From positions 744,001 to 808,000 of the forward strand of contig JAWMAR010000001.1 in NCBI GenBank assembly GCA_036785375.1: DNA of 64,000 bases, in the 5' to 3' direction. This DNA is from Leucoraja ocellata. Its lineage: Eukaryota. The position numbers were made by a program, and so were the translations under genes. Below the pieces are notes generated by a model. That model made no database searches. It saw only the letters and a program-made list of their open reading frames with translations, and was not told the origin of the DNA. Shown here piece after piece: positions 1,252 through 57,540 of the stretch (positions are counted from its first letter, which is position 1; each line of letters begins with the position of its first letter).

Positions 1252-1284
1252 TTAGTGTCTCCCTCTTGAGTCCTCATTCTGTTC
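1252..1284 (-). CDS. Copy A terminal coding exon EQNEDSRGRH*
   Basis: TTTCAG| acceptor, TAA at 1254-1252; 3'UTR conserved among paralogs. Confidence 0.8.
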   Translation of the reverse strand, partial: EQNEDSRGRH

Positions 1285-4200
1285 CTGAAATTGAGGAAAT
1301 CATGAGTCATTTTATGTTGGACTGAGCTCACACTAACTTCAATCTTTTATCATTTGTTTTAATGATGGTAACGACATGACACAAAGCCTCAGTTTACACT
1401 TACGTTTGAAGACTCCTCCACTGATACCTCTGATGACTTGCTTTTCACCTATTTGACAAGAGATATATTTACAATATTTTAGAATCATGTCCGTACACAA
1501 TGTTTTAATAATTTCAGTTTGTAAATGTGCAACTTGAATCACTTTAAATCTCGGAATACACGGAAGTCACTGGGAATTGCACAATAAACAGTTCACATTT
1601 GAAGTGCAGTGAAGTATTGATATGCTGGGACTCTGAGATCAATTATTACATAATAGAGGTGAGTTATTCCATCAGTTGGTCACGGCTGTGCTGACCTCCG
1701 CCTGACCCCCACTCGCCCATTCCCAGAACAGGTAATTATACACTGTTAAATGGCGACTATGTCTGGGATGCTCCCCTAATTAAGCCACCGGTAACATCAG
1801 TGTACACACCAGGATTGTCCTCAGGAGAAGTGCACTCCCTTTCCTAATTCTATTTCAAAATGAAGCAAAAAAACAAATCCACACTCAAGGTGAAGTTGCC
1901 AATCCTCAGCCACTGAATAGAGAATATCCAATAGCATTTGTGGAACAATATTCTCTCTCCTATATATATCCCTGGACAATGCCGGGATGGGGTAGTGGAC
2001 CCAACACAACAATTCCACATCAGCCCAACTTCCCCACAGGACTCAAAGATCAGAATCCCTTTATAAATGCATTGAGCTGCCATAAAGTAATTGTCTCTCT
2101 CTCCCCATATTTTAATATAGTTGAACCCAAGCTATTAAATGTCTTTAAATGTCAAGATTATCTGAAAAATGGTCTATTTATACTCACGTTGTCTAGAGAC
2201 TCGTTCGATGTTTCTGTTGATTTTTCTGTTGATTTGGATTTGTCCTGTTTGGAAATAATGATTATATATTTAGCACGGGACACTAATTGGTAATTTTGAA
2301 AATATATGAATTGCCATCGGACTCCTGAAACAATCATCTCTTTCTCACCCACTTCCTGGAAGTACTGCCACATACTCTTGATCTTAACTCTACACAATTC
2401 ACTTCATCCGTAATTGTATATTAATTTTTTTCACTGCTTCAGATTGCACTACAGTCTAAAGTTTTGTTTATTGTTGTATTTATCATTATTATGTACATGT
2501 GGTTTACTCTGTAAGCTTCATGTGAGCAAGTAATTTAATTGCACCCTGGTGAATAAAATAAGAAATCTATGACTGTAGTTGAAAAATTGCCAGCATACAC
2601 AGATATTAAATATTGACACAACGTAGTCATTGTAAAATATCTAGATATTTCTGAGTTGCAATTTAGTACGTGGAGAGGTCTGTTATGAAGGCAAATGATA
2701 TGTTGCCTTTGTTACAAGAGAACTTGAGAATACTACAATGATATGGAGCCTTTGTGAGTATTGTGTACAATTTTGGTCTCCTTGCCTTAGAAAGGATATG
2801 CTCGATGCTCTATAAAGTGTGCAGGAACAGTTCTCCAGGCTAGTTCCTGGGATGGTGCATCCATTGTAACATGAGGAACTGAGTAGGCTTAAACCTTTAC
2901 AGGTGAGAAGAATTAGGTGATTTCCTCACAATGAACATAATTATGAAAATGCATAGCAGGGAAGAGAGAGGGGATGTTTCCACATTCTCAGGAGTCTAAA
3001 ATGTAGGATTCAGTCTCAAAATAATGGATGGGTCAATTGGGATTGAGGTGAAGAAAAACCCGAGGAGGTGGAACTTTCAAAATCTCTAACCCAGAGAGTC
3101 GTGCAGGCTCAGTCATTGACTTTAGTCAGAACATAAATTGATAGGATTTCTGGCTGTTCATGGAATGAACGGTTACAGTGTTTATTCAGTAAAGTGGTGT
3201 TGAGATGGAAGATAATATTCAAAGACCACTCAGTATCCTCCTTTAACAGCTTAGAACAGGCATATTATGAGGTGAAATCCTTCCACTTTATTCCGATAGA
3301 TCAATCTAGGTTTTATACCATAATGTAGTTGAGAATCAAGAGCTAATAATTCAAAATTAAACTTACGTTTGAAGATTCTTCCAGTGAAGTTTCTTTTGAC
3401 TTGCTTTCCACCTGTATGAAAACATTAACATTTACAAAATTAGCACAGCATCTACCTGGTCAGTAACATGCATACATAGATTGTTCCCTCCAAATGGTAG
3501 ACTGGAATATCGAATTATCAATGTGGGATTGTTTATTCTACATTCCCAAGTGTTGATTCAATTAGGTAGTTTTGAACTGAGGAAGCTCAACTAAAAGTTT
3601 CACTTTCTACAGCCCCCCAACATTCAAAAGAATGCCTGGTAAAGTGGTTGTGCAGAGTCAATGGATATTCTTAAGGCAGGGTGACGGGCATCAATTGCCA
3701 TCTGTTTTAATGAACTTTGGTTTCACTCCATGAAGGATTTGTGCTCATTGACTATAATTGGTATGAGCTAGGCAGACTGTTGATGCTCATCTCAAATTCA
3801 GTGGAGACCAGACGCTTCATGTACTGCATCAAATATCAGAATCCCTTCCCTACGTATCAGTCTGGGACAACACACTATCTCACTCACTATTCTGAATGGA
3901 ATCGCTAACAATTCATTGCTATTGATTAAGATCAACAAGATCAATTATTGGACAAATACTAATTAATACTCACATGTGCAGATTTCTCCAACGAAGACTC
4001 TTTTGATTTGCTTCGAGTCTGTATACAAAAAATATTTACATTTAGGTCTTTAGAACAGGACACCAAAGAAATGTTTTGTGAATGATCTCATGTGTTAGAA
4101 ATCCCACTGCCCTAATGTGTATAACTGTGTGGTTACCTCAATACTGGTTTCACTAGATTCTATTGAGTCACTCTCGCTGTCAATGGTCTTCAGACCTTCA

Positions 4201-5857
4201 CACTCCACATCGACTACAGCAACTTTATCAGCAAAATATTCCACGCGGCTTTTGCAAAACCCTTTCTCCTGTGAAAATAAAGCAAAATGCAGGGAAATTA
4301 TTGATGACTCCAAGCGCAACTTTGAATCAAAGTGATTACGATATAACACAATTCTCAGTCTTTTTTTGTAGGTATGGTAATTTCTATAAAATAATCTGTG
4401 ATTATATTCCTTTCTGTGATGTTACCCAATACACACAGGGATTTAAATGCTTTAAAATATAACTCTGAACTTACAGCAATCCTTTTAGGGCGGAAGGTGC
4501 AACTGGAATCATCAAATTCCTGTCCAGAATTCTTGGAGCAGACGGTTTCTTTCACGGTGAATGTTAAATCCACGTTGTATGACAGTTTACCTGTACGATA
4601 AGTCTGATGAAAAGAAAATAGTTTATTGATAAGTCTTATATCTGGTGTTATTACAATGGTCTGATAAAGCTTAGAACTACCTTACTCTTATAACTAGATA
4701 GGGCTCTTTAAAATAGCGGAGTCAGGGGATGTGGGGAGAAGGCAGGAACATGGTACTGATTGGGGATGATCAGCCATTATCACCTTGAATGGCGGTGCTG
4801 GCTCGAAGGGCCGAATGTCCTACTCCTGCACCTATTGCCTATTGTCTTTTACCCAGGCCTTTTCTTCAGCAGATGATTACATTGGCGGTGCCAGCATTAA
4901 CACCCATAATGAGCAAGAAACTTAATTTGCCCAAAGGTATAATTACAACCTTTATTCCAAAACATTCATCTAGTCCAAAATTTCCAGAGTTAAGTATAGA
5001 TTTTGGATTTAAATTCTTGATCTGATATGCATTAAAAACTGCTAATATCAAGCTCATGCTTAGTAATTAACCTCTTATGTTTATATAATATCACACACCT
5101 AATCTAATTAAAGAAAATAGACACAAAAAGCTGGAGTAACAGTAGCGGAACAGGCAGCATCGCTGGAGAGAAGGAATGAGTGTTGTCAGGGTCTCGACCC
5201 AAAACGTCATGTATTCCTTCTCTCTAGTGATTCCTGTCCTGCTGAGTTACTCCAGCTTTTTGTGTCTACCTTTAGTATAATCCAGCATCTGCAGTTCCTT
5301 CTTGCACACCTAATCTAATTAAAAAGGGTGAGGCTATTCAACCCCTCGGTTCTATACTGTATCAATCCCATCTGTCCTATTCCTCCTCTCTTTGTTGCCC
5401 TGCAACCCTTCAACCTATTCTATCCCTCACATGCCTATCAGTTCCCCTGATGCTTTCTGCCATTCATTTACCCCAGGCACAGGTTAAAGGAGACAACTAA
5501 CTTGCTCATCCCTACAGAGCCGAGTATGTGAAACACAATTAAACCAGGGTACACTTACAGTTGTTACACCTCTCCTGGTGATCGCACACAGGTTGGTGAT
5601 CTCGGTGATTTCATTCAGTTTTGCAACTGAGGCTCTCAGAGCATCCTTGGTGCTTGGCACTCCTGCAGAGAGAGAAGGAAAGTTGTAGAAATCATTCCAA
5701 CAAAGAGCAGCGAATACTTTTTACACATTGGTGAATTATCGCTGACAGAAGATCATTACCAGTAACTCGTTACTTTCTGAGGCCCTCCCTCTCCCCAGTA
5801 CCTACCTGAGCAGTGGAGGATCTGCACGGCAGCGATGACGAGGAGGAAGGATTTCAT
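1252..5857 (-). CDS. SPP2: Secreted phosphoprotein 24 (SPP2)-like gene, copy A; 9 coding exons, 213 aa
   Basis: Exons 5857-5806, 5662-5559, 4603-4475, 4268-4137, 4018-3974, 3411-3367, 2244-2188, 1448-1404, 1284-1252, all GT-AG, join into one open frame: MKSFLLVIAAVQILHCSG VPSTKDALRASVAKLNEITEITNLCAITRRGVTT TYRTGKLSYNVDLTFTVKETVCSKNSGQEFDDSSCTFRPKRIA EKGFCKSRVEYFADKVAVVDVECEGLKTIDSESDSIESSETSIE TRSKSKESSLEKSAH VESKSKETSLEESSN DKSKSTEKSTETSNESLDN VKSKSSEVSVEESSN EQNEDSRGRH*. The motifs DAL.ASV.K.N, F...ET.C.K.SG, C.F, C.S.V and V...C followed by a Ser-rich tract match SPP2 as I recall it. The symbol denotes family membership, not proven orthology. Confidence 0.85.
1404..1448 (-). CDS. Copy A micro-exon VKSKSSEVSVEESSN
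   Basis: 45 nt, AATAG| and |GTAAGT. Confidence 0.8.
2188..2244 (-). CDS. Copy A micro-exon DKSKSTEKSTETSNESLDN
   Basis: 57 nt with an internal 12-nt duplication, AACAG| and |GTGAGT. Confidence 0.8.
2660..3205 (+). mobile_element. Degenerate CR1 remnant in a copy A intron
   Basis: Decayed CR1 3' region; homologous remnant at about 22980-23520 in the same intron of copy B. Confidence 0.6.
3367..3411 (-). CDS. Copy A micro-exon VESKSKETSLEESSN
   Basis: 45 nt phase 0-0, TACAG| and |GTAAGT. Confidence 0.8.
3974..4018 (-). CDS. Copy A micro-exon TRSKSKESSLEKSAH
   Basis: 45 nt phase 0-0, TACAG| and |GTGAGT. Confidence 0.8.
4137..4268 (-). CDS. Copy A exon 4 (C...C plus Ser-rich tract)
   Basis: 132 nt, TTTTCACAG| acceptor, |GTAACC donor. 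Confidence 0.9.
4475..4603 (-). CDS. Copy A exon 3 (ETVC...C)
   Basis: 129 nt, AG/GTAAGT bounded, conserved in all three copies. Confidence 0.9.
5559..5662 (-). CDS. Copy A exon 2 (cystatin-fold helix)
   Basis: CTGCAG| acceptor, |GTAAGT donor, 104 nt restores phase 0. Confidence 0.9.
5806..5857 (-). CDS. Copy A exon 1, signal peptide MKSFLLVIAAVQILHCS(G)
   Basis: ATG at 5857, hydrophobic core, phase-1 donor G|GTAGGT. Confidence 0.9.
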
Positions 5858-5947
5858 TCTGTCTTGTGTGGGATCAGCCGGCTGGGTTCTCAGAGTAAAG
5901 TTATTGCTTCTCTCTCTCGATCTGCCTTCACCTCGCTGCCTTCGGTC

Positions 5948-5994
5948 TTTATACCCTGCACCTCCACCACATTCAAACACTGACTCATGTTTGC
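5948..5994 (-). promoter_or_regulatory. Copy A core promoter: TATAAA (5953-5948), AP-1 TGACTCA (5981-5987), FOX-like TGTTTGC (5988-5994)
   Basis: TATA about 90 nt upstream of the ATG; motifs identical in all three paralogs. Confidence 0.7.
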
Positions 5995-8934
5995 TCAGTA
6001 TGTTGGTCGTGGGCGCCGGAATCAGATGAAAGGTGGGCTCCATTTATGGACAGAGCTTCCTCCCCACGTCAGCATCGTGTTTAGATTTTGTGGCAGAGGC
6101 ATGATATCAGATTTTATTCCTCAGAATATGAAATAATAAATTCACCGAAGGGAAGAAACAATCAACTAACTTGTACAAATTTATTTGCAGTGCACTGCCA
6201 ATGCCCCAGGAATGTACTGGAATTTCCAGAATACTGCTGCAGGAAACATGAGCAATGTCAGCAAAACCATGGAGCTGGTCACTGGAGGTGGCAAAACCAT
6301 GGAGCTGGTCAGAAAACGAGGTGGAGTACCCACCCTTGTCTATGTCAATGGGGCTGAAGTGGAGATGATCAAGGGGTTCAAATTCCTAGGCATTGATATC
6401 ACCAACAATTTGTTCTGAGCAACCACATTGAAGTGACGGCCAGAGGACACACCAGTAAGGACCATCAACATATTTCAAATAAATACTTAATAATTCTAAC
6501 ATATGCACCATAGAAATTATTACATCATGATGCAACACAACTTGACACCAGTTCTGCCCAAGACCACAAGAAATTGCAGGGATTTCAGAGTGTGGCCAAT
6601 TACAATACTCATTGGCTCATTGACTCCATGTACAGCAAACATAATCAAGAACCAACTCAGCGGGATCGCCTTGATGTTCCTGCTGCATAGCTCGCTGGGA
6701 TCCTCTTGACATGCCGCTCACCAGGATCCTGGAGTAACTAAGAAGAAGGATCTGAAGAAGGGTCCCAACCCGAAACATCATCTATGCCTGTTCTTCAAAA
6801 ATACTACCTGACCCACTGTTACTCCAGCATTTTGGATCTTTCCTCGGTAAAACAACATCTTCTGTTCCTTGTTTCTACATTCTTCCCCATTGTTATCAAA
6901 CTCTGGAACAGATCTCCCATATGCTGGGGATGAATTTACACTCTTCCAATCTACCTCATTGTGCAACTTGCATTTTTTTAAACCCACGCTTTCTCTGTAG
7001 CTGTAACACTATATTCTGCACTCTGTTTATTTTCTCTTTTACATTACCTCTTATAAATTGTTCAGGAGCCTGAAGGTTGTTGGGAAGAAGCTATTCTCGA
7101 ACTGGGAAGTTTCCAGACTCCTATACCTTCTTCCCGATTATAAGTGACAATAATAAACTAATTCCAAGGAATGTGTTTGAGGTGGCTGAGACTGAGAGGA
7201 TTCAGGGTCAATATTTAGACCAAAAATAGACACAAAGTGTTGGAATAACTCAACGGGTCAGGCAGCATCTCTGGAGAAAATGGATGGATGACGTTTCTTC
7301 CTACTGGGGAAGGGTCTTGAATCAAAATGTCGTCCATCCTTTTTCTCCTTTAACCTGCTGAGTTATTCCAGCACCTTGTGTCTATCTTTGATATAAATCA
7401 GCACCTGCATTCTTCCACTCCACCACAGACTCTGGTGGCGCCAGAGGACAGGAGATGTACAGTTTCCCAAAATAAACTCAGTAGTTTTGAGCCAGTAATT
7501 CCAACCGCAGTTATACAGAGCTACAGAAACAAGACCAGCGACAAAATTATTAACCATTCAGATGTATTTCTAAAGGAAATTCAGCAGAGGTTTTTAAATC
7601 GCTTTTGACCAATGTTTGAGATATTTCATGGGGCAGTGTGGTCGAAGTGGTGTACATGAACGTTCAAAGGGTGCTTGGTAAAATGCCTGAAGCAAACTTA
7701 TCATCCCAAATGAAGCCATGGAATAAATGGACAGAAAGAGTGTGGATACAGATAGAGGCTGAGAATCTGAAGGGGAGGAACTGAAAAGCTGTGTCGAGGC
7801 ACACATCGGTAACATTTTGAAAAAGTGTGCACAAAAAGTTGTGCACACTTCCCAGTCCATCACCGGCTCTGAGCTTCGGCACTGACCTTCCCGCCATTGA
7901 AGGGATTTACCGAAATCGTTGCCTCAAAAAGGCAGCCAGCATAATCTGAGACCCACACCACCCTGGTCTCACAGTCCTTTCACCCCTGCCATCGGGAAGA
8001 AGATACAGGAGCCTGAAAACTGTAACGTCCAGGTTCAGGGACAGCTTCTTCCCAACAGCTATTCGGAAATTAACACTACAACCTCAAATCAGCTGAATAG
8101 ACTATTATTGTTATTATTGCACTATTATTGGGTTTTATTGTGTGTGTACGTATGTGTGCGTCTGCAACAGAGAGATGAAGGAAAGAATTGTACAAGTACA
8201 GAGCTAATCTTCCAGACATTTCAGTTCTCTGTCTCGCTCTCTCTCTGACATCTCCATCATCAACACTTTTGTATAAGCCTGAGGAACAGCACAACATCTT
8301 CTCACCCGGCCTTCCTGACTCAGCATTGAGGCCAATATTTTCAGACCATAAGCAATTCCAACATGTTTAATCCAGATTCCCTATACCCCCCTACATTCCT
8401 CTGGTAAATTCAATCAGTATACGTCCCAATTACTCAACTTTCATTTCTTCTGTTGCTTTGCTTGCTCTCATGCAATTATCTCTTATCTTGTGCTCTCAAA
8501 CTTCTTTTCCTTTAACCCCTTCTGGCTTTCACTCCACCCATGTCCCTTCCTTCCTTCTGCCTTCCCCTTTCCCCTAGATCTGTGTCTGAGAAGTTGTTTT
8601 TCCTCTGACTCTCCGGAGAAATTATCTGACTATCTCTGAATCATTAGTGGGTGATGCCCCACCTAGCGCACAGCCCGTGGTCTGACCTAACCCTGGTCCC
8701 CCCCATTCAGATAGAGTTAGAGAGTCTGAAAGAGCGATAGTGTGATTCAATGATTCAAAAATTAATTGGAGCTGATAACTAGGGTGAAACAAATATTGAG
8801 ACTTTGGATACAGCGGTCCTTCTCGACAACTGGTTGAATCCTTCAGGTGTGAGGTGCTCTGAAAGCAGCCGAACCTGGCGTAGGTGTGGCTCCTCCATCC
8901 TGGTGTTCACACAAGCCGGATTCCTGTTCATCAC

Positions 8935-9228
8935 TACAGTTGTACAGGGCCCTGGTGAGACCACACCTATTGTTTGCAGTTTTGGTCACCAAATTTGAGG
9001 AAGACATTCTTGCTATTGAGGGAGTGCAGCGTAAGTTCACGAGGTTAATTCCCAGGATGAGCGGGACTGTCATATGTTGATCGAATGGAGTGACTGGGCT
9101 TGTATACACTGGAATTTAGAAGGATGTGAGGGGATCTTATTGAAACATATTAATTATTAAGGGCTTGGATACGCTAGAAACATGTTCCCGATGTTGGGGT
9201 GTCCAGAACCAGGGGCCACAGTTTAAGA
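8935..9228 (+). mobile_element. CR1-type LINE fragment
   Basis: LYRALVRPHL...EGVQRKFTRLIP. Confidence 0.75.
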
Positions 9229-9538
9229 ATGTATTGCTGACTGTGTGAGCAGTTGCTATCACTGGAAGACAATTATCTTGTTGCCAATCATAACTTGCAT
9301 CCTCAACAGAAACTATTGGAATTGGATAGGCAGCTGTTTCTGATGAAATGCATGGCTCAACAATGCATGTTCACCAAGAATTCAAAAGCTAACATTGCTT
9401 GTAATGAAGCTATCCTTTGATCGTTATCTGTATGGGTCAGTATATGTTTAGTACAGTGAAGAGCTTTGTTGCTTTTTTCTTCCAAAGACGGATTGGGCGA
9501 AGATTTGAGCTTGAGTCCCTGCAAATTGTCCAGAGTCC

Positions 9539-10283
9539 CAAATGTTTCTCCCATCTGTGATAAATGTCTATCTCAAAACGCTACTATAGTACACTCTTTT
9601 GTCTCTTGCATAAAACTTCAAAAATTCTGGTATGAAATTTTTGGAATTTTTACAAAACTATTTGAAATAAAATTGAAGCCCAAAGCAGAACTGATTATCT
9701 TTGGATCAATGAAAGACGGATGTAAGCTGACTTCATTTCAAAAATGTCTACTTAATTATGGCTTAATAACGGCAAAAAAAAAACTTAAATTCTGGGAAAA
9801 TGCACCTACACCGCCGCTCAAAATGTGGATTTGAAACATGTTGGAAATGTTACACCTTGAAGATATGAGATTCCTCCTATCAGGCAAATCAGACCAATTC
9901 TTAAAGATTTGGTCTCCATTTATCGACTTATTACAAGTATGTGGTGCAACACAACCTTAGAAATTAATTGTGTCATAACCAGGCGAAGGGTGGGTAAAGA
10001 TACGAAGGAGGCATATCCCTTTCAATTTCTCTCTTTTTCCCCCCTTTCTCTTTCTCTCTCCTCTATTCTTTCTCTTTCTGCTTATTTCACATCACCTTCT
10101 TCTTTCCTTTTTCGAGCTGTATAATATTCTCTATCTCTATATTTCTTGCTCTTCTTACTCTTTTTTTCTACTATTAAATTTAAAATAAGAAGTTGTACAT
10201 GAAATGTAATATGTTATTTATCTTATATTATTGTACATCACTTCTAATAAAAATATTTATTAAAGAATAAAAAAATAAATAAA
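9539..10283 (+). mobile_element. 5'-truncated L1/Tx1-type LINE with A-rich tail and 16-bp TSD
   Basis: C-terminal zinc-knuckle-like CDKC...H..SC..LQKFW; TSD aaattgtccagagtcc at 9523-9538 and 10284-10299. Confidence 0.85.
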
Positions 10284-11940: not shown

Positions 11941-11945
11941 TACTT

Positions 11946-13560
11946 CCATATAACCATATAACCATATAACAATTACAGCACGGAAACAGGCCATCTCGAC
12001 CCTTCTAGCCCGTACCGAACACGTATTCCCCCTAGTCCCCTATACCTGCGCTCAGACCATAACCCTCCATTCCTTTCCCGTCCATATAACTATCCAATTT
12101 ATTTTTAAATGATAAACACGAACCTGCCTCCACCACCTTCACTGGAAGCTCATTCCACACAGCCACAACTTCGGTCCCTTAATTCTCAAGTCATGTCCCC
12201 TTGTTTGAATCTTCCCTACTCTCAGTGGGAAAAGTTTATTCATGTCAACTCTGTCTATCCCTCTCATCATTTTAAAGACCTCTATCAAGTCCCCCCTTAA
12301 CCTTCTGCGCTCCAGAGAATAAAGTCGTAACTTGTTCAACCTTTCTCTGTAACTTAGTTGCTGAAACCCAGGCACCATTCTAGTAAATCTTCTCTGTACT
12401 CTCCCTATTTTGTTGACATCCTTCCTATAATTAGGCGACCAAAATTGTACACCATACTCCAGAATTGGCCTCATCAATGCCTTGTACAATTTTAACATTA
12501 CATCCCAACTTCTATATTCAATGCTCTGATTTATAAAGGCAAGCACACCAAAAACTTTCTTTACCACCCTATCTACATGAGATTCCACTTTCAGGGAACT
12601 GTGCACAGTTATTCCCAGATCCCTCTGTTCACCTGCATTCTTCAATTCCCTACCATTTACCATGTACGTCCTATTTTGATTTGTCCTGCCAAGATGTAGC
12701 ACCTCACACTTATCAGCATTAAACTCCATCTGCCATCTTTCAGCCCACTCTTCCAACTGGCATAAATCTCTCTGTAGGCTTTGAAAATCTACTTCATTAT
12801 CCACAACCCCACCTATCTAAGTATCATCTGCATACTTACTAATCCAATTTACCACACCATCATCCAGATCATTGATGTACATGACAAACAACAGTGGACC
12901 CAACACAGATCCCTGTGGCACCCCACTAGTCACTGCCCTCCAACCTGACAAACAATCATCCACCATTACTCTCTGGCATCTCCCATTCAGCCACTGTTGA
13001 ACCCATCTTGCTACTCCACCATTAATACCCAACAATTGAACCTTCTTAACCAACCTTCCATGAGGAACCTTGTCAAAGGCCTTACTGAAGTCCATATATA
13101 CAACATGCACTGCTTTACCCTCATCAATTTCCCGAGTAACCTCTTCAAAAAATTCAAGAAGATTAGTCAAACATGACCTTCCAGGCACAAATCCATGCTG
13201 ACTGTTCCTAATCAGACCCTGTTTATCTAGATGCTTATATATATTATCTCTAAGTATCCTTTCCATTAATTTGCCCACCACTGACATCAAACTAACAGGT
13301 CTATAATTGCTAGGTTTACTCTTAGACCCCTTTTTAAACAATGGAACCACATGCGCAGTATGCCAATCCTCGGGGACTATTCCCGTTTCTAATGACATTT
13401 GAAATATTTCTGTCATAGCCCCTGCTATTTCTACACTAACTTCCCTCAATGTCCTAGGGAATATCCTGTCCGGACATGGATACTTATCCACTTTTATATT
13501 TCTCAAAAGTGTCAGTACTTCCTCTTCTTTGAATCTCATAGTTTCCATAGCTACTCTACT
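11946..13560 (-). mobile_element. CR1/HER1-type LINE (RT and 3' end), first tandem copy
   Basis: GVPQGSVLGP, YADDT; (TTATATGG)n tail. Confidence 0.9.
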
Positions 13561-16255
13561 TATAACCATATAACCATATAACAATTACAGCACGGAAACA
13601 GGCCATCTCGACCCTTCTAGTCCGTGCCGAACACATAATCTTCCCTAGTCCCATATACCTGCGCTCAGACCATAACCCTCCATTCCCTTCCCATCCATAT
13701 AACTATCCAATTTATTTTTAAATGATAAAAACAAACCTGCCTCCACCACCTTCACTGGAAGCTCATTCCACACAGCTACCACTCTCTGAGTAAAGAAGTT
13801 CCCCCTCATGTTACCCCTAAACTTCAGTCCCTTAATTCTCATGTAATGTCCCCTTGTTTGAAACTTCCCTACTCTCAGTGGGAAAAGCTTTTCCACGTCA
13901 ACTCTGTCTATCCCTCTCATCATTTTAAAAACCTCTATCAAGTCCCCCTTAACCTTCTGCGCTCCAAAGAATAAAGTCGTAACTTGTTCAACCTTTCTCT
14001 GTAACTTAGTTGCTGAAACCCAGGCAACATTCTAGTAAATCTCCTCTGTACTCTCTCTATTTTGTTGACATCCTTCCTATAATTAGGCGACCAAAATTGT
14101 ACACCATACTCCAGAATTGGCCTCACCAATGCCTTGTACAATTTTAACATTACATCCCAACTTCTATACTCAATGCTCTGATTTATAAAGGCCAGCACAC
14201 CAAAAGCTTTCTTTACCACCCTATCTACATGAGATTCCACTTTCAGGGAACTGTGCACAGTTATTCCCAGATCCCTCTGTTCACCTACATTCTTCAATTC
14301 CCTACCATTTACCATGTACGTCCTATTTTGATTTGTCCTGCCAAGATGTAGCACCTCACACTTACCAGCATTAAACTCCATCTGCCATCTTTCAGCCCAC
14401 TCTTCCAACTGGCATAAATCTCTCTGTAGACTTTGAAACTCTACTTCATTACCCGCAACCCCACCTATCTTAGTATCATCTGCATACTTACTAATCCAAT
14501 TTACCACACCATCATCCAGATCATTGATGTACAGGACAAACAACAGTGGACCCAACACAGATCCCTGTGGCACCCCACTCGTCACTGGCCTCCAACCTGA
14601 CAAACAACCATCCACCATTACTCTCTGGCATCTGCCATTCAGCCACTGTTGAATCCATCTTGCTACTCCACCATTAATACCCAACCATTGAACCTTCTTA
14701 ACCAACCTTCCATGAGGAACCTTGTCAAAGGCCTTACTGAAGTCCATATACACAACATCCACTGCATTACCCTCATCAATTTCCCGAGTAACATCTTCAA
14801 AAAATTCAAGAAGATTAGTTAAACATGACCTTCCAGGCACAAATCCATGTTGACTCTTCCTAATCAGACCCTGTTTATCTAGATGCTTATATATATTTTC
14901 TCTAAGTATTCTTTCCATTAATTTGCCCACCACTGACGTCAAACTAACAGGTCTATAATTGCTAGGTTTACTCTTAGAACCCTTTTTAAACAATGGAACA
15001 ACATGCGCAGTACGCAAATCCTCCGGCACTATTCCCGTTTCTAATGACATTTGAAATATTTCTGCCATAGCCCCTGCTATTTCTACACTAACTTCCCTCA
15101 ATGTCCTAGGGAATATCCTGTCCGGACCTGGAGACTTATCCACTTTTATATTTCTCAAAAGTGTCAGTACTTCCTCTTCTTTGATCCTCATAGTTCCCAT
15201 AGCTACTCTACTTGTTTCCCTTACCTCACATAATTCAATATCCTTCTCCTTGGTGAATACTGAAGAAAAGAAACTGTTCAATATCTCCCCCATCTCTTTT
15301 GGCTCTGCAGATAGTTGTCCGCTCTGACTCTCTAATGGACCAATTTTATCCCTCGTTATCCTTTTGCTATTAATATAGCGGTAGAAACCCTTCGGATTTA
15401 CTTTTACCTTACTTGCCAAAGCAACCTCATATCTTCTTTTAGCTTTTCTAATTTCTTTCTTAAGATTCTGATTTCTTTCTTAAGATTCTCTTGTTTCCCT
15501 TACCTCACATAATTTAATATCCTTCTCCTTGGTGAATACCGAAGAAAAGAAATTGTTCAATATCTCCCCCATCTCTTTTGGCTCTGCAGATAGCTGTCCA
15601 CTCTGACTCTCTAATGGACCAATTTTATCCCTCGTTATCCTTTTGTTATTAATATAGCTGTAGAAACCCTTTGGATTTACTTTCACCTTACTTGCCAAAG
15701 CAACCTCATATCTTCTTTTAGCTTTTCTAATTTCTTTCTTAAGATTCTTTTTACATTATTTATACTCCTCAAGCACCTCGTTTAGTCCATGCTGCCTATA
15801 ATTATTGTAGATCTCTCTCTTTTTCCAAACCAAGTGTCCAATTTCCCTTGAAAACCATGGCTCTTTACAATTTTTACTATTTCCTTTCAACCGAACAGGG
15901 ACATAAAGATTCTGTACTCTTAAAATTTCACCTTTAAATGTCCTCCATTTCTCTTCCACATCTTTTCCATAAAACAAACTGTCCCAATTTACTCCTTTTA
16001 AATCCTTTCGCATCTCCTCAAAGTTAGCCTTTCTCCAATCTAAAATCTCAACCCTAGGTCCAGTTCTGACCCTCTCCATAATTATATTGAAACTAATGGT
16101 ATTGTGATCACTGGTCCCGAACTGTTCCCCAACGCATACCTCTGCCACCTGACCCGTCTCATTTCCTAACAGGAGGTCCAGCACCGCCCCTTCTCTAGTA
16201 GGTACTTCTATGTAATGCTGCAAAAAACTATCCTGCACACATTTTACAAACTCCA
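13561..16255 (-). mobile_element. CR1/HER1-type LINE, longer copy with a 493-aa RT ORF and an internal duplication
   Basis: ORF 13938-15419 (YADD); endonuclease C-terminal LDLLL...SDH in ORF 15756-16310; same tail as the first copy. Confidence 0.92.

Positions 16256-17110: not shown

Positions 17111-17177
<67 letters not shown>
16980..17177 (+). mobile_element. LINE (L2-like) 3' end with (ATT)n tail
   Basis: gtccttgagagaccttaaaggcgccctataaataaaatg followed by about 22 ATT units (17112-17177). Confidence 0.6.
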
Positions 17178-17523
17178 GTATGTCCTCATCCAAATCATTG
17201 ATGACAAACAATAACGGGACCAGCAGCAAACCCTGTGGCACACCACTAGTCACAGGCCTCCAGTCCGAGAAACAACCTTCCACCACCACCTCTGATTCTT
17301 TTCCTGAAGCCAATTTTCTATTCATTCAGCTATCTCTCCCTGGATCCCATGCAATCTAACCTTCCAGAGCAGCCTGCCATGCGGAACCTTGTCGAATGGT
17401 TTGCTGAAGTCCATATATACAACATCTACAGCTCTGCCCTCATCGACCTTTTTGGTCACGTCTTCAAAAAACTCAATCAGATTTGTGAGACATGATCCCC
17501 CACGTACAAAACCATGCCGATTA

Positions 17524-18279
17524 AGGGCCTGTCCCACTGACGCGACCTTTCAGGAACTGTCTTTGACCTCCAATCTCAACGGCACTCGCCTGAAAAACCT
17601 CGAGCTGGATCGACCGTCAGCGATGAAACCGCGAACTGGATTGACCGACCGCGCACACACACATGCACAAAACACATCGCAAAGGCGGGGGCCAGGGAAA
17701 GTGGGGGATCGCTGTCTGAAATTCACATCTGCGATGAACAGAAAGGTAAAAGACGGCTGCACAGTGTATGGTAAGTCCTTTAGAGAGTGCGGGGGGGGGG
17801 GGGGGGGGGGGCAAGAGAAGGGGAGAGAGGGGGAGAGAAGGGGAGAGAAGGGGAGAGAGGGGGGGAGAAGGGGGAGAGATGGAGTGGAGACACTTTTAAG
17901 AAGCCAGACAACTTTTTAATAAAGTTTAGCAGGCATTTAACATTACCGGTCAGTTTTCCTTGGTCCCGAAAACTCCAATGAGCCAATTGTCAGTGAAGGA
18001 GATTGCCTACGGCTGCCCTCGACTGCCTGTAACTACATAGCGACCCCACTCCACTGCACTACGAGTTCAAAAGAACCATGCTGACCAATTTTTACTCGCG
18101 GGAAATCTTTCAACATGGTGAAAAATGTTCCTCTACCAAACTGCGGCCGCGTGCAATCGGGAACTTTCCTCGAGCATGAAGGAAAGTTCCAGTGACCTCA
18201 TAGGACCAGGTGTCGACCATGCTGCATGCGCAAATTCTTCTAAACTCGCAGATTAGGTCGCCGCAGTGGAACAGCCCCT
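17524..18279. mobile_element. PIF/Harbinger-like MITE
   Basis: TIR AGGGCCTGTCCCACT / AGTGGAACAGCCCCT, TTA TSD; splits the CR1 RT. Confidence 0.8.
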
Positions 18280-18772
18280 TTACCCCTAATCAGCCCTTGT
18301 TCGACTAAATATCCTATCCCTCAGAATACTCCCTGGTAACTTTCCAACTACAGATGTTAAGTTCACTGGCCTATAGTTTCCAGCATTTTCCCTGCAGCCC
18401 TTCTTGAATAGAGGCACAACATTTACCACCCTCCAGTCTTCCGGCACCTCTCCCGTATTTAAAGATGACTCATAAATTTCAACCAGGGCTCCCGCAATTT
18501 CCTCTCTGGTTTCCCACAATATCCTCAGATATATCAAATGCATGAATTGTTGTAAAATAATTGTATTTAGATCAACAATATATTAGACAATAATATACAG
18601 AAATGAACAGAATTTTACAAACTAGAATCTCCTAGTTATGTACAGTCAGGAGCTCCAGGCCCCTGTCCTTGTATATAGGCAAGTACAGTACAGGTGACAG
18701 TGTCTTGTTTATTCTGAATGCAGTCTTCTAATGTTCACACTGAGTTCAGATGCTCAGGAGTTTCATTCATGG

Positions 18773-18966
18773 TTAGTATCTCCCACTTGAGTCCTCATTC
18801 TGTTCCTGGAATGGACACAACCAAAATAATTGTATTTTTGTTGTGGACTGAGCTTACTCTTAAGTTTAAATCATTGGTTTTAATGATGATGACATAACTC
18901 AAAGCCTCCGTTTACACTTACTTTTGAAGACTCCTCCAGAGATAATTCTGTTGACTTGCTTTTAAT
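18773..18966 (-). other. Duplicated last-two-exon cassette (IKSKSTELSLEESSK | EQNEDSSGRY*): alternative 3' end of copy B or remnant of a further copy
   Basis: Exons 18966-18922 (45 nt) and 18805-18773 with intact AG/GTAAGT and TAA; homologous 3'UTR to about 18545; AATAAA at 18708-18713. Confidence 0.75.
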
Positions 18967-21431
18967 CTGTTTGACGACAGATATTTACAGTTTTAGGTTT
19001 GTCTCTAAACACAAAGTTTAAATAGATTGAATTTGTAACTGGGTAAAGGAATCACTTTAAAATTTAGATTTGCAAATCACTGATAAATGCAGATTAGACA
19101 TATCACAATCTGAAGTGGAGCCAAATATTGATATGTCTCTGAGATCAATTCTATAGCAATTACAAAATTTTGAGATTTTAAAAATCAAGTCTTTAATTTA
19201 TCCCATCAGATAAAGCATAAAAAGAAGTTTAATTTGACACCTAATTCACTTTCATATCTTCAGTATTAAAAAGGTTATGGCCATTTTCATACTCGGAAAT
19301 TAGCATCTTGTTCCCTATTGCTTTTTCATTGACTTAACACAAAAGCTGTGATCGAGAACATTTAAAAGCCGATAACTTTCTTAAAATTTAAGAGAACAGA
19401 AATAAATGTTCAGTTATTATAGATTGAAGCATTCTGAAACAAATATGAAACAATCCTACTTGGATGACTTGAAATTAAAGCATATAATTAGTTAATTACC
19501 TAATTGTAGCTAATTACAAAATTCTATTACTAGATCTAAACATCTATCCATTTCTTAAGAATAGATTAACATTTTTAAATAGCCTAAGTGTCCAAATAAC
19601 ATTCACACAATAATTCAGAATATAACATAATTTTTAAATCTATTTGTCATGGGTTTATAGGTCAAATGGAAGGAATTTAATGTTTAATACCTGTAAATTA
19701 ATGGCCATTTAAATCAGCTTGCGAGTGGGATTTTCTGGAACGTGACCATTTAGAACGTTCAGGCAGCGGTGAATTTATACCCCCATATCTGCAGCAAATA
19801 CACTGCCGGTTCTTCGGGGGGGGGGGGGGGGGGGAAGTCACCTTGTTCACAACTTAAAATGTGAATTAAATACATCTTAAGAAACACTTTTATACATAAA
19901 AATAAACTACTTTCTTTTACGTGGTCCTCCAAAAAATCCGTCCCAGTTGTCGGCTTTGATGGCTTCAATTGACCATCAATCTACACATAAGGATCTACAC
20001 ACATAACTTAGACACATTTTCAGATATTACTTGGTTTTCTTATTCTTCTGAACATTTTCCTGCAGTTTCCTTTGAATATATTTCTGGAGGGCAATAAGAT
20101 GGGACCGTATAATAAGATGCTGACTGCGGATATTGCAATGACATGAGTTTGTGAGTGCTGTGAATGTACGACTGACTGTGTTAGAAGTTGCTACCACCCG
20201 GATACCAATCATCCTGTTGACATTCATTGACAATCATAACTTGCATCCTCAATGGAAACTATTGAAATAGGTTAAGTTGCAGTTTCTGATGAAATGATTT
20301 CCCCAGAAGAATTCAAAAGTTTATTTTGTGTGTTTCCTCTGGTTAATTCCATTGACAGACAGGATGAAAACTTGAGCTTGAACTGTCCCTGTGAATTGTT
20401 CGGAGTCCATGGTCTATGGCAAAGTTGCACAACTGTGGAGCCACTGCCTCACAACACCAGAGAATTGGGTTCAATAGTGACCTCAGGTGTTCTCTGTGTG
20501 GAAATTTCACATTCTCCCTGTATCTGCGAGGGTTCCTTCTGGGTGCTCCAGCTTTGCCCTACACCACATCTTCACATCTCAGAAACTCTCATTCTTTCAA
20601 AGGGTAATAGTTGGAGATTTAAAAAAATAAAAAGCAAATGTTGGAAACCAAATAATTTGGCCTTAACTCTGTGCCTGAAATTATTATTTTTTATTTAGTT
20701 TAGAGATACAGTGTGAAAACAGGGCCCCTCAGCCCACCGAATCCGCACCGACTATCAGTCACCCATATGCTAGTCTATCCTAAACATAAGGGTCAATTTA
20801 AAGAAGTCAATTAACGTATAAACCTGCAAGTCTTTGGGATGTGGGAGGAAATCAGGGCACCCAGAGAAAACCCACGTGGTCGCAGGGAGAATACACAAAC
20901 TCCATACAGACAGCACCCATAATCAGGATTGAAATCAGGGTTCTGCCACTGCAAGGCACTAACTCTCCCACTGTGCCGCCCTTAATGCAGATCATCGAAG
21001 AGTCCAACACATCAGGAGTTCCCACCGTACAAGCGAGCAGCACAGTTAGTGAGGGACAGTTTGGCTTGAGCACAATCCTCTAGATCACTAGAAACAGGAA
21101 ATTGCAGATGCTGGTTTACAAAATAAGACAAAAAGTGCTCGAGTAACCTAAAGGATCAAGTATTTCCTATAGATCAGTGACACACAATATAAATTCTGGA
21201 AGCAAAACGGTGAATATTTCATAATAATTTTATTTAGGTCCACAATGTATTACACAATAATATACAGAAATGAACATAACATTTACAAACAGTAGAATCT
21301 CCCAGTTATAGTGATATGTACAATCAGGAGCTCCAGGCTCCTGTCCTTGTTTAAGAGCAAGTATAGTACAGGTGACAGTGTCTTGTTTATTCTGAATGAG
21401 GTCTTCAGGTTCTCAGGAGTTTCATTCATGG

Positions 21432-21464
21432 TTAGTGTCTCCCTCTTGAGTCCTCATTCTGTTC
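21432..21464 (-). CDS. Copy B terminal coding exon EQNEDSRGRH*
   Basis: Same coding sequence as the copy A terminal exon; AATAAA at 21229-21234. Confidence 0.8.
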   Translation of the reverse strand, partial: EQNEDSRGRH

Positions 21465-24400
21465 CTGTAATGGACACAATAAATAGAATTGTCATTTTAT
21501 GTTGGGCTGAGCTCACTCAGACTTCAATTTTTTTTAGCATTGATTTTAATGATGATGACTCAGTTTACACTTACGTTTGAAGGCTCCTCCAGAGATAATT
21601 CTGTTGACTTGCTTTTCATCTGTTTGACAAGATAAATAATTACAATTTTATAATCATCTCCAAATCCAAAGTTTAAAAAGTGTTAGTTTGTTACTGGATA
21701 AATGGAACTACTTTAAAACTCAGAATTGCAAGTCACGGGGAAATGCAGAGTAAACACTTCACAATCTGGTCAGCAACATATTGATATGCTTGGGGCTCAG
21801 ATAACTTTTTAACCTAACCGATGTGAATTATTCAATCAATTGATCTCAACTGCGCTGATCTCCTTCTGCACCCCATTTACCCAATCCCAGAACAGATTTT
21901 TTATACTCTGTTAAATGATGATAATGTCTGGGATGTTCCCCTCATTAATCAACCATAATATCAGTTCACACATCAGCAATATCCTCAGGGAGGGTGAAGT
22001 TTCTAATTCAAGTTCTAAATTACATAAAGACCAAACTCACACTCAGGATAGAGTTGGCAATCGTTATGCATTGAATAGAGAATATCCAATAGCTAGTTAT
22101 CTCCCCAATCTCTCTCTGGGTGGCCATTTAATAAGGTTTAGCTAAACTGGGCTTCATTATCTTAACAACAGATAAGAATTCCATGATTAAACTTACATTG
22201 GAACTTTCATTGGAATACTCCTCAATTGATGTCTCTTTTGACTTGTATTTTACCTGTGTGAAAATATGAATATTTATATGCTCAGTATTCAATAATGGTT
22301 AATGAAGCCTGTCTAACATGAGCAGTGGGGTCAGTGGAGCCAACTCAACAATCTCCCCTCAGCTCAACTTCCGCACAGGAATCAAACATCAGAATCCATT
22401 TCTCAATCATTGAGCTACAATAAATGGCAGTCTCTCTTTCCATATTCTAACATAGTCAAACCCAAGATATTAAACGTTTTTATGGAGTCAAAATCATCAA
22501 AATCATCTGAAAATTGTTCTATTTCTACTCACCTGATCTGAATGCTCGTGCGATGTCTCTGTTGATTTGGTGTTATCCTGTTTGGAAATAAAAATTTCCA
22601 TGTTTAGTACAGGACACTTATTAGTAATTTTGAAAATAGATGATTTCCCATCAGATTCCTGAACCAATCACATTTTTCGCAGCTCCTGCCTGGAGGTCCT
22701 GCCATATGCTTTTATTCTTACCTCTGCCTCATTCTGTTATTCCTTTGTTGTACTTTAATTGCACTACTTCAGATTCAATTGCACTACCTCAGATTCAGCT
22801 CATTGTTGCATTTATAATTTCTGAATATATACCCTTTAATTTCTACGCTTCATGTTAACACGGAATTTCATTGCACCCTGGTGTACATGAGGAAAAACTA
22901 ATTGAAAAATTAGGAGCATGCACAAGTATTAAATATTAAATTATAATGGAGTCATTGTTGACTGGATATTTCAGTTGTGATTTAGAGCAAGTGGAGCAGG
23001 GGATTTTGAAGACAAATGTTATATTGTCTTTGTTACAAGAGGACCTTGAAAAAGTACAACAATGTTATTCAGCCTTGGTGAGTGTTGTGTAGAGTTTTTG
23101 TTTCCTTACCTAAGGAAAGATATACTTGATCTAGAGTCTGCAGAACAGGTTCACTCTGCTAATTCCTGGGATAGTTCATCTGCTATATGTGGAGTGACTG
23201 AGTAGGCTGACGTGTCTATTCTTTACAGGTCGGAAGAATGGTCGGTGATTGCTTCACAATTAACATAATAATGAGAGTGTGTGGCAGGAGAGAGAGGGAG
23301 GATGTTTCCCCTTTATAATGAGTCAATAATTAGGGTCACAGTCTCAACTGATAGGGTTGAGATGAGGAGGAACCTCTTCACTGGGAGGTGGACCTTTCGA
23401 ACTCCACTGCAGAGAGCTGTGGAGGCTCAGTCACAGAGTTCAGAGAACGGAAATGGATAGATTTCTAGTTGTATGAGAAATCAAGGATTACAGTATCAGT
23501 TCAGTAAAGAGGTGTTGAGGTGGAAAATAATATTCCAAGTGCTCAGAGTATCCTCTTTCCCACTGTCTGAAACAGAAATATTATGAAGTAAAATCCTTCC
23601 ACTCTGTTCTGACAGATCAGTAGAGGTTTTACATCATATTGCACTTGAGAATGTGGAGGTAACAATTCCCAAATTAAACTTACATTTGAAGAATCTTCCA
23701 GTGATATTTCGTCTGACTTGCTTTTTACCTGTAGGAAACATTAACATTTACAAAATTAATATAGGTTGTACTAGGTAAGTAACAAGCATTAATAGATACC
23801 CTCCCAAAGGCAGACTGGAATAATGAATTATAAATGAAGGACTGTTAATTCTATATTCCTGACACACTAAACCTGAAGAGTGCCTTCAGTAACAGACTGG
23901 TTCCACCAAGATGCAGTACAGAACACAACAGGAGATCATTCTTCCCTGTGGCTATCAAATGGTACAACTCCTCCACCTTGTGTCATGGGGTAGACTGACT
24001 CCCCTTCTCTCCCACCCTCCCCAAATATTTGCAAATCCCCAATCCTTTCCACTCATCACTTTAATTTCATGTTTCATGTATCTTGTGTTTTATGACGGTT
24101 GGCAGATCAATTTCCCTCCTGGGATAAATAAAGTTCTCGTGTATCGTATTGTATCGTATTGTATCTGAGCACTGAATCAATGCTATTGTGTTGGACTGAG
24201 GAAACTCAACTAAAAGTGTCACTCTCCAAAGTGCACCAATAATTAAATAAGTGCCTGGTAAAGTGGGTCTGGAGTGTCAATTGATATGAAAGTAGAGACA
24301 TCAATTGCTGTCTGTTTTAATGAACTGCTGGTTTCCCTCCAGGAAGGATTTGTACTCATTGACTATTATTGGTATGCGCCTGGAAGACACTGCTTTTGTA

Positions 24401-26200
24401 ATCCTTGACTCATTGATGCTTATTTCATCTTCAGTGGAGACCAGACCATTATGCAATCAAATCAAATATCAGGTTCCCCTCCCTGCATATCAAACTGGGA
24501 CAACACGCTGTCTCACTCACTATTCTGAAAGAAGTGGCTGACATTTCATTGCTCACAATTGCGATCAACAAGAGAAATCATCTGACTAATACTAGATAAT
24601 ACTCACATGTGACGTTTCTTCCAGTGAAGCCTCTTTTGATTTGGGTTGAGCCTGTAGAATAATATTTACAATTAGACCTTTAGAATTGGACAGAAATGTT
24701 TTGTAAATGATGTCCTGTGTTAGAAATCCCATTGGCCTGAATTGTATAACTGTGCAGTTACCTCAATACTGGTTTCACTTGACTCTGATGAGTCACTCTC
24801 GCTGTCAATGGTCTTCAGACCTTCACACTCCACATCAACGTCAGCCACTTTATCAGCAAAATATTCCACTCGGCTTTTACAAAACCCTTTCTCCTGTGAA
24901 AATAAAGCAAAATGCAGAGAAATTAGTGATGACCAAGCACAACATTGAATCAAATTTATTATTATTTAACTCAATTGACAAACTTTTCTTTAATATGGTG
25001 CTTTCTATGAAATAACATAATTATAACTCTTTCTATGATGTTACTTGATACACACAGAGGTTTAACATAACTCTGGACTTACAGCAATCTTTTTAGGGCG
25101 GAAGGTGCAACCAGAATCATCAAATTCCCGAACAGAATTCTTGGAGCAGACAGTTTCTTTCACGGAGAATGTTAAATCCACGTTGTATGACAGTTTACCC
25201 GTGCGATAGGTCTGATGAAAAGAAAATAGTTAATAGTCATTATATCTGGTGTTCTTACACTGATCAGATAAAGCTTAGAACTACACGTCTTTATATTCAG
25301 CATGTGATTAACCTGCTGGTGCCAGAATCATTATCCACAATGAGCAAGAGACATAATGTACCCATAGATAAAATAGCTGCTTTAACCATCATTATATAAA
25401 CCCACAATTTGCAAGAAACTTTAATTTTATGGAAGAAATTAGCAAATAAGACAACAAGGGAAAATTTCAAAATGAATTAAATTCCAAATCAAAGCTTGGT
25501 AGTAGCTCCAACCTCATTCTTGTACATTGGTCCATTCTGAGTTTCAACTCAGACTGATTTAGAATTTAAATTGCTGATATTCATTGAAAATGGTATGTAA
25601 TAAAATACTAAGCACTTCTTTAGTAATTAAACACATAAAATTAGATCTTATTTTAACATGCACCTGATCTTACTTTTAAATTATACAGAGAGAGGGTATT
25701 CGACCCATTGGGCCTACACTGGCTCTTCCTTCTCTTTATTTTCCTGCAGCCCTGCTTTTTTTTTGTTCCATCAGCTCTCTTTTAATTATTTTTGCTATTA
25801 ACTTAATCTAGGGATATTTTACAGTAACCAGTCAACTTGCACTGAACCACATCCTTACACAGCCTAGTGTATGAAACACAATTAGACCAGGGGACACTTA
25901 CAGTTGTTACGCCTCTCCTGGTGATCGCACACAGGTTGGTGATCTCGGTGATTTCATTCAGTTTTGCAACTGAGGCTCTCAGAGCATCCTTGGTGCTTGG
26001 CAATCCTGCAGAGAGAGAAGGAAAGTTGTACAAGACATTCAAACAAGCGTCGGTGAAGTATTTTTACACATTGGTGAATTATCCCTGACTAAAGCTCATT
26101 ACCAGTAACTCATTTCTTTCTGAGGCCCTCCCTCTCCCCAGTACCTACCTGAGCATTGGAGGATCTGCACAGCAGCGATGGCAAGGAGGAAGAATTTCAT
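21432..26200 (-). CDS. SPP2: SPP2-like gene, copy B; 10 coding exons, 228 aa
   Basis: Exons 26200-26149, 26005-25902, 25211-25083, 24893-24762, 24651-24607, 23728-23684, 22577-22533, 22253-22197, 21619-21575, 21464-21432; all GT-AG with a continuous frame. Tail: ...SESDSSESSETSIE AQPKSKEASLEETSH VKSKSDEISLEDSSN DNTKSTETSHEHSDQ VKYKSKETSIEEYSNESSN MKSKSTELSLEEPSN EQNEDSRGRH*. Confidence 0.85.
21575..21619 (-). CDS. Copy B micro-exon MKSKSTELSLEEPSN
   Basis: 45 nt, AG/GTAAGT. Confidence 0.8.
22197..22253 (-). CDS. Copy B-specific micro-exon VKYKSKETSIEEYSNESSN
   Basis: 57 nt, CACAG| and |GTAAGT. Confidence 0.75.
22533..22577 (-). CDS. Copy B micro-exon DNTKSTETSHEHSDQ
   Basis: 45 nt, AG/GTGAGT. 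Confidence 0.8.
23684..23728 (-). CDS. Copy B micro-exon VKSKSDEISLEDSSN
   Basis: 45 nt, AG/GTAAGT. Confidence 0.8.
24607..24651 (-). CDS. Copy B micro-exon AQPKSKEASLEETSH
   Basis: 45 nt, AG/GTGAGT. Confidence 0.8.
24762..24893 (-). CDS. Copy B exon 4
   Basis: 132 nt, EKGFCKSRVEYFADKVADVDVECEGLKTIDSESDSSESSETSIE. Confidence 0.9.
25083..25211 (-). CDS. Copy B exon 3
   Basis: 129 nt, TYRTGKLSYNVDLTFSVKETVCSKNSVREFDDSGCTFRPKKIA. Confidence 0.9.
25902..26005 (-). CDS. Copy B exon 2
   Basis: 104 nt, LPSTKDALRASVAKLNEITEITNLCAITRRGVTT. Confidence 0.9.
26149..26200 (-). CDS. Copy B exon 1, signal peptide MKFFLLAIAAVQILQCS(G)
   Basis: 52 nt, G|GTAGGT. Confidence 0.9.
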
Positions 26201-57041: not shown

Positions 57042-57046
57042 ATTCA

Positions 57047-57502: not shown

Positions 57503-57540
57503 AGAAACCTCTACTGGAACTGGTACTGACGGACCAAACA

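Follow-up and report, generated by a model that had tools for sequence, protein, structure and literature searches.

The DNA analysed here, a window of 64,000 nt on the forward strand of Leucoraja ocellata contig JAWMAR010000001.1 (assembly GCA_036785375.1, positions 744,001 to 808,000; the contig is called C1 below), contains three full spp2 paralogs (A, B and C) and one orphan tail (D), all on the minus strand. Their exons are listed in Table 1. Gene A runs from 5857 to 1252 in nine coding exons and encodes 213 aa, and gene B runs from 26200 to 21432 in ten coding exons and encodes 228 aa. The frames are open in both, and GT-AG borders every coding intron. The layout is shared: a putative signal exon, three domain exons, four (A) or five (B) micro-exons and a last exon. 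The first coding intron is in phase 1 and the remaining coding introns are in phase 0. These exon models agree with the initial annotation, which had been made from the bare sequence and had described A and B as SPP2-like genes extended by four and five homologous 45- or 57-nt phase 0-0 exons. B is identical to A. radiata XP_032880447.1 at 219 of 228 residues without gaps, and A and B differ from RefSeq isoforms by entire 15- or 19-residue units. The hydrophobic N-terminus of both, a putative signal peptide, matches that of annotated relatives, as judged by comparison. A scan of both strands of the window for short phase 0-0 exons with at least two S-x-E (Ser-any residue-Glu) motifs gave ten matches, all of them exons of A, B or D.

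Table 1. Exons of the spp2 genes and the orphan tail in the window (window coordinates)
Feature	Position	Strand	Remark
A exon 1, putative signal peptide, phase-1 intron next	5806..5857	-	
A exon 2, cystatin domain	5559..5662	-	
A exon 3, cystatin domain	4475..4603	-	Pfam Spp-24 26.4 bits, cut-off 26
A exon 4, domain end + 3 S-x-E	4137..4268	-	
A micro-exon, 45 nt, phase 0-0	3974..4018	-	
A micro-exon, 45 nt, phase 0-0	3367..3411	-	
A micro-exon, 57 nt, phase 0-0	2188..2244	-	
A micro-exon, 45 nt, phase 0-0	1404..1448	-	
A last coding exon + stop	1252..1284	-	
B exon 1, putative signal peptide	26149..26200	-	
B exon 2	25902..26005	-	
B exon 3	25083..25211	-	
B exon 4	24762..24893	-	
B micro-exon 5, 45 nt, phase 0-0	24607..24651	-	joints on both sides in related-organism contigs
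B micro-exon 6, 45 nt, phase 0-0	23684..23728	-	joints on both sides in related-organism contigs
B micro-exon 7, 45 nt, phase 0-0	22533..22577	-	
B micro-exon 8, 57 nt, phase 0-0	22197..22253	-	
B micro-exon 9, 45 nt, phase 0-0	21575..21619	-	
B last coding exon + stop	21432..21464	-	
D orphan micro-exon, 45 nt	18922..18966	-	
D orphan last exon	18773..18805	-	
C exon 1	43414..43465	-	
C exon 2	43185..43288	-	
C exon 3	42585..42713	-	
C exon 4	42098..42223	-	
C exon 5, 40 nt, phase 0-1, micro-exon paralog 5 nt short	41410..41449	-	
C exon 6, 45-nt S-x-E-type, +1 frame, Lys/Arg-rich	40813..40857	-	stop 40828-40826
C last exon start	40648..40679	-	untranslated if exon 6 included

The tails of A and B are rich in S-x-E. 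The totals of 13 (A) and 15 (B) motifs after the last cysteine given by the initial annotation are right, but three of each come from exon 4, which leaves 10 and 12 beyond it. Shuffled tails of the same composition hold 5.5+/-1.8 (A) and 5.3+/-1.8 (B) motifs, and none of 10000 shuffles reaches the observed counts. Read in frame 0, the micro-exons encode 28% Ser and 27% Asp+Glu. Pairwise identity among the 45-nt exons, eight in all across A, B and D, is 53-93%. Across 51 distinct acidic 45-nt exons of the gene cluster around the window, S5, E7, S9 and E11 are kept in 49, 49, 50 and 49 exons, a sample gathered by a profile search seeded with nine micro-exons of the window, which biases it towards conservation. 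By parsimony on a 58-row tree, the codons of these four residues have undergone 21 synonymous and 8 non-synonymous changes (omega 0.11), and the other eleven codons 56 and 132 (omega 0.65); the same acidic exons taken in the +1 frame give an omega of 2.0. The S-x-E codons are thus under purifying selection, as the initial annotation had supposed from the preservation of Ser and Glu.

A census of 20 genes and D counted 76 internal micro-exons (66 of 45 nt, five of 57, two of 40 and one each of 54, 42 and 33), between one and seven per gene. It covers cluster sequence with four gaps, leaves out the divergent gene g870 and drops two 26-nt sub-matches as parts of 57-nt exons. All but two of the 76 are multiples of three in length, the exceptions being the 40-nt exons of C and of a gene outside the window, g904. 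Since the exons are symmetric, the tail can lengthen or shorten without breaking the frame. The tail grows through duplication of one 45-nt exon. The final 45 nt of exon 4 found no support as the source of the micro-exon, with an ungapped identity of 12/45 against a null of 12.5. Two other forms of tail were noted. In eight genes at C1 602-702 kb a genomic deletion has joined the last micro-exon, which lacks a donor, directly to the last exon, and the resulting different C-terminus also occurs in RefSeq skate models. The tail of Callorhinchus P0180 carries 22 S-x-E on a repeat of 5/10/15 residues that does not resemble the unit of elasmobranchs, possibly an independent S-x-E expansion.

Several lines of evidence place the genes in the SPP2 family. 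Pfam Spp-24 is the best family for exon 3; the exon from A passes the cut-off (Table 1), those from B and C alone score 24.3 and 25.0 bits and fall under it, and four of four full-length relatives exceed it with 37-46 bits. Pfam Cathelicidins stays under its cut-off of 21, with at most 18.9 bits. All 84 proteins found with exon 3 are elasmobranch and bear Spp-24, the closest being from rajid skates, and a profile search of 1.84 billion representatives returned 66 matches, with Spp-24 the best family in 35 of 35 scanned; the profile search of PDB sequences gave no match. Four cysteines (C74, C87, C100 and C118) are present in A, B and C and invariant across 58 aligned relatives. In a midpoint-rooted tree (supports 98/88 and 100/98), A, B and C share a group with Callorhinchus spp2 and the spp2.3 genes of catshark (98/88), and spp2.2 is the sister of this group; a second tree sets them against spp2.2 at 100/100, and cathelicidin and fetuin rows are absent from the trees. 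The AlphaFold model of a relative, P0144 (mean pLDDT 80), matches cathelin and cystatin folds, with the cathelin domain as its top match and a low-confidence tail; a model of P0118 from an 18-row alignment was discarded at pLDDT 41. A and B are intact spp2.3 genes, members of the SPP2 family and not of the SCPP family. The SPP2-like identity proposed at the outset is supported by the Spp-24 match, by the tree, in which A, B and C group with catshark spp2.3, and by synteny with vps8.

The window sits inside a gene cluster that spans C1:510-955 kb and gives 21 matches to exon 3. Among the spp2 neighbours vps8, nme9, sh3bp4, arl4c and cops8, it is vps8 that establishes the synteny: its exons lie on the same contig at C1:1.13-1.14 Mb, about 320 kb from the window genes, in keeping with the synteny published for spp2 genes (PMC13188829). 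A PF10075 search for cops8 gave no match on C1. A second set of 21 exon-3 matches with a second vps8 occupies 1.93-2.58 Mb of C1 as a mirror-image duplicate, which is 95-98% identical to the window over matching stretches and slightly unlike the first arm in gene content. Most probably the mirror arm represents the second haplotype, which the assembly has joined to the first in a single contig; counted so, the cluster comprises about 20 genes. D, which lies between B and A within the interval first annotated, consists of one micro-exon, a last exon and a 3' untranslated region (window 18535-19150) with intact splice sites. Its 5' exons were not found in the window, and the mirror arm holds no near-identical match; D might serve B as an alternative pair of terminal exons. 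In the window-side arm the reading frame of the spp2.2 gene at C1 816-817 kb is apparently broken in both exon 1 and exon 2, through either an assembly error or a broken allele. Far from the cluster, a weak exon-3 match at C1:17387296-17387388 (35% identity, E 7.1) is either chance or a distant cystatin-fold gene.

Splicing of gene B can be followed in contigs from two runs of a related organism. The joints 1-2, 2-3, 3-4, 4-5, 5-6 and 6-7 occur at the predicted boundaries in contigs X1 and/or X2, as does, in related-organism contigs, a joint that skips exon 5; three raw reads skip exon 8. Most micro-exon junctions of B therefore appear to be spliced in the related organism. Exon 8, the 57-nt exon, has an AG acceptor in the window and GG in the mirror arm (C1:2333913), and is absent from one A. 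radiata isoform.

C, which lies outside the interval first annotated, and g904 (C1:902-907 kb) carry a basic tail. The C product has 160 aa and a computed mature isoelectric point of 9.9, versus about 5 for A and B. The 40-nt exons of the two genes align to the 45-nt class with a single 5-nt gap, and 1/300 and 0/300 shuffles reach the mean score. Because the 40-nt exon 5 ends in phase 1, the next 45-nt exon is read in the +1 frame, and its frame 0 is closed in C by TAA at codon 2. Acidic exons put in the +1 frame encode 28% Lys+Arg and 5% Asp+Glu; that frame is Lys/Arg-rich because the S-x-E codons read that way. Exon 6 of C and of g904 differ at six positions before the shared stop, of which five are synonymous in +1 and all six non-synonymous in frame 0. 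By this comparison the basic tail is selected in the shifted frame. Exons 5 and 6 of C are identical in the mirror arm. The stop of C lies 13 nt from the last junction, and stops near the last junction as a rule escape nonsense-mediated decay, so the transcript should be spared.

The basic tail is widely conserved. Its motif occurs in 28 of 246 proteins fetched, from 14 other species among squalomorph sharks, galeomorph sharks and batoids, and in all 28 exactly 13 residues separate the end of exon 4 from the motif, which is the spacing that a 40-nt exon requires. Across 19 distinct tails the core of the motif does not vary, and the Pristis and Hypanus proteins stop at the same residue as C. 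The tail includes Y-K-R-V-K-Q, a match to XBBXBX, the heparin-binding consensus. In the outgroup spp2.2, frame 0 is used for both the micro-exon and the last exon, and the spp2.3 of Callorhinchus is rich in S-x-E; the acidic frame is therefore ancestral and the basic frame derived. Catshark spp2.3s1 and spp2.3s2 have a Lys/Arg tail and only three S-x-E, and s2 contains the 15-residue basic unit twice. The main text of PMC13188829 states that the catshark proteins have no Arg-rich C-terminus except spp2.1; in contrast, spp2.3s1 and s2 do end in a Lys/Arg tail. The gene order here is C, spp2.2, a spp2.1-like gene (g870) and g904, versus s2, 2.2, 2.1 and s1 in the table of that paper, and assuming that the published table follows gene order, the position of the basic copies seems conserved between skate and catshark. 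We infer that g870 is spp2.1 from its likeness to P0093 and P0184. The idea that C itself is spp2.1 with an ancestral Arg-rich tail was ruled out, as its catshark counterparts are spp2.3s1/s2 and C nests in spp2.3. A further gene, g510 (C1 507-512 kb), shows a second route to a basic tail: point changes have made its tail Lys-rich within frame 0, and this is kept in three other skates.

Outside the spp2 genes, CR1-like long interspersed nuclear element pieces occur at window 11.9-17.5, 29-33.5 and 37-39 kb, the first region including a 1.65-kb tandem duplication (11949-15213). Open frames at window 55000-58400 resemble, by eye, reverse transcriptase and tyrosine recombinase and are likely a DIRS-type retrotransposon.

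Much of the general picture has a precedent. Debiais-Thibaud et al. 2026 (PMC13188829) describe, in the main text of their paper, the tandem expansion of chondrichthyan spp2 genes (up to 18 copies in A. radiata), the accumulation of S-x-E, the parallel with SCPP genes and expression in mineralising chondrocytes. In catshark, spp2.3 transcripts are high in vertebrae, Meckel's cartilage and chondrocranium, at 70-2700 transcripts per million (TPM), with s1 and s2 at 1109 and 2692 TPM in Meckel's cartilage; they stand at 0-0.17 TPM in liver and at most 0.07 in blood, and at baseline in ovary, uterus, denticles and dental lamina, s1 and s2 being at baseline in gill, spleen, blood and denticles (PMC13188829). 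The headline of the initial annotation (an SPP2 expansion with S-x-E motifs, a role in mineralisation and an SCPP parallel) was thus right but already published. Of the roles that it offered, mineralisation agrees with the catshark orthologues, and the serum, egg and denticle options are disfavoured by baseline expression in liver, blood, ovary, uterus and denticles (PMC13188829). We found neither the micro-exon mechanism nor the conserved, frameshifted basic paralogs in print, and both add to that picture. The main text of PMC13188829 mentions none of exon, intron, splicing, frameshift, reading frame and lysine, though its figures and.fas files could differ, and its Fig. 9 or.fas may show the basic tails. 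Literature searches, from which subscription papers were mostly absent, found no report of a spp2 frameshift in elasmobranchs and, on secreted phosphoprotein 24 in shark cartilage, PMC13188829 only; no paper on SPP2 exon phase was among the best 15 of 44 literature matches.

We consider it likely that A and B, as intact spp2.3 genes, encode proteins that are secreted by mineralising chondrocytes and phosphorylated by FAM20C; the resulting polyanions are predicted to bind calcium phosphate and regulate cartilage mineralisation. The basis in the skate is gene structure, family, motif selection and most B junctions (from the related organism); cartilage expression comes from catshark (PMC13188829). 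Chondrocytes at the mineralising front would secrete the spp2.3 proteins, FAM20C would phosphorylate two motif serines per 15-residue unit to give a flexible polyanion, and this tail would bind calcium phosphate and restrain crystal growth, its length being adjusted by exon duplication and skipping. Phosphorylation, mineral binding and the direction of the effect are inferred here, and by analogy with osteopontin and fetuin-A the direction would most likely be the stabilisation of amorphous calcium phosphate and the limiting of crystal growth.

Some observations weigh against this account and against its extension to C below. Contigs X1 and X2 belong to a different organism, their RNA nature is a guess, and at their 92% likeness reads of one paralog can map to another. 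Joints 7-8, 8-9 and 9-last of B are not among the exact contig joints listed; the inclusion of the micro-exons in mRNA, on which the initial annotation depended, appears to hold for B up to joint 6-7 and was not seen exactly for the last three. Raw-read runs X10 and X14 give almost no coverage of B and mostly match a repeat at about 23.9-24.3 kb. Beyond exon 4 the unphosphorylated tails of A and B are mildly acidic, with net charges of -4 and -9. The catshark TPM of near-identical paralogs may suffer from multi-mapping, and the phosphosites in PMC13188829 are putative only, its authors calling for protein-level work. As to C, the case for its splicing is made by the canonical splice sites that both copies have and by RefSeq models from other species. 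Trees of the domain unite basic with acidic copies of the same species in several sharks, and a single origin of the frameshift therefore rests on the tail and not on the domain. One old frameshift followed by gene conversion among the domain exons fits this grouping, recurrence being a second option.

The S-x-E tail is unlikely to be primarily a BMP/TGF-beta-modulating or matrix-targeting appendage to which mineral binding is secondary. The cystatin domain of SPP2 does bind BMP2, with cleavage-dependent effects (PMC13188829), conservation is far stronger in the domain than in the tail, and domains that are almost identical carry basic tails in some copies and acidic ones in others. However, selection is specific to Ser and Glu at FAM20C spacing, and tail length has been amplified repeatedly, the 22 S-x-E of Callorhinchus standing on another, 5/15-residue repeat. 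Slightly less credible still is that C and g904 are cathelicidin-like antimicrobial peptide precursors and not matrix anchors: the cathelin domain as top fold match, the cationic tail with a helical hydrophobic moment of about 0.7-0.8 and the high isoelectric point of mature C speak for it, but Cathelicidins stays under its Pfam cut-off, and catshark s1 and s2 are restricted to cartilage, with baseline levels in the gill, spleen, blood and denticles (PMC13188829). Liver-made circulating or egg-deposited mineral chaperones, the role of mammalian SPP2 (PMC13188829) and fetuin-A in calciprotein particles, would share their domain with the skate proteins; the catshark spp2.3 levels in liver and blood against those in cartilage, and the baseline in ovary and uterus, make this improbable. 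That C is a decaying pseudogene with an accidental +1 reading is very hard to sustain, for although frame 0 of exon 6 stops at codon 2 and the +1 frame of acidic exons is Lys/Arg-rich regardless, the synonymous changes in the +1 frame, the identity of exons 5 and 6 in the mirror arm, the end residue shared by Pristis and Hypanus, the motif core invariant across its many tails and the position of the stop all argue otherwise.

Returning to the reading of A and B as mineral-regulating phosphoproteins, C and g904 would add a polycation, the exon 5 shorter by 5 nt setting the next exon in the +1 frame; most plausibly, this tail would hold the cystatin domain on the sulphated glycosaminoglycans of cartilage or on phosphorylated paralogs. 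More tentatively, we suggest that one 5-nt deletion before the shark/ray split made the polycation and that mineralising chondrocytes co-secrete the two charge forms, which pair electrostatically or anchor to glycosaminoglycans and so place and limit mineral in tessellated cartilage, a two-charge system from one exon. Of the seven spp2.3 genes of catshark, two lack a polyacidic tail, and one of these is among the two with the highest expression in cartilage; given such basic paralogs copy number is not a simple dose of mineral-binding protein. The basic paralogs would be a clean, long-conserved case of a duplicated gene that gained a new function by frameshift. The convergence with SCPP and casein genes at the level of exons would offer a mechanism for rapid, frame-safe tuning of phosphosite number, which could be compared with the level of mineralisation across species.

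The closest known system is the chondrichthyan spp2.3 clade, which has the same family, vps8 locus, tandem expansion, S-x-E accumulation and SCPP parallel (PMC13188829) and includes near-identical A. radiata relatives of A and B. Bony-vertebrate SPP2 (SPP24), mainly expressed in liver (PMC13188829), is alike in its four-Cys cystatin domain and Ser stretch after the domain, and has a signal peptide to which the hydrophobic N-terminus of A and B would correspond. It differs in being a single gene, with 3-4 S-x-E in the seven tails counted. Casein genes have a phase-0 short-exon architecture and grow by short-exon duplication. Acidic SCPPs are likewise secreted and Asp/Glu-rich, with S-x-E sites and phase-0 introns (PMC9122587), and A and B share the S-x-E motifs and an Asp/Glu-rich region with them. 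In contrast, SCPP genes arose at the sparc-L locus from the 5' exons of that gene and have first coding introns in phase 0 (PMC9122587), whereas A, B and C are cystatin-domain genes near vps8 with a phase-1 first intron. The resemblance is architectural only; the convergence with SCPP and casein genes put forward in the initial annotation stands, with short phase-0 S-x-E exons of separate origin and locus, and its statement that cartilaginous fishes are generally reported to lack the bony-vertebrate SCPP cluster needs correction in that elasmobranchs do carry one scpp gene (PMC9122587). Cathelicidins share the cathelin fold and, with C, a cationic C-terminal extension, but A, B and C fall under the Pfam cut-off, the tails of A and B are acidic, and that of C is cationic by predicted composition. 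C-terminal frameshift mutants of calreticulin also turn an acidic C-terminal tail into a basic one (PMC10098294); they are somatic and oncogenic, whereas the skate frameshift is germline, fixed in duplicated genes and conserved in sharks and rays.

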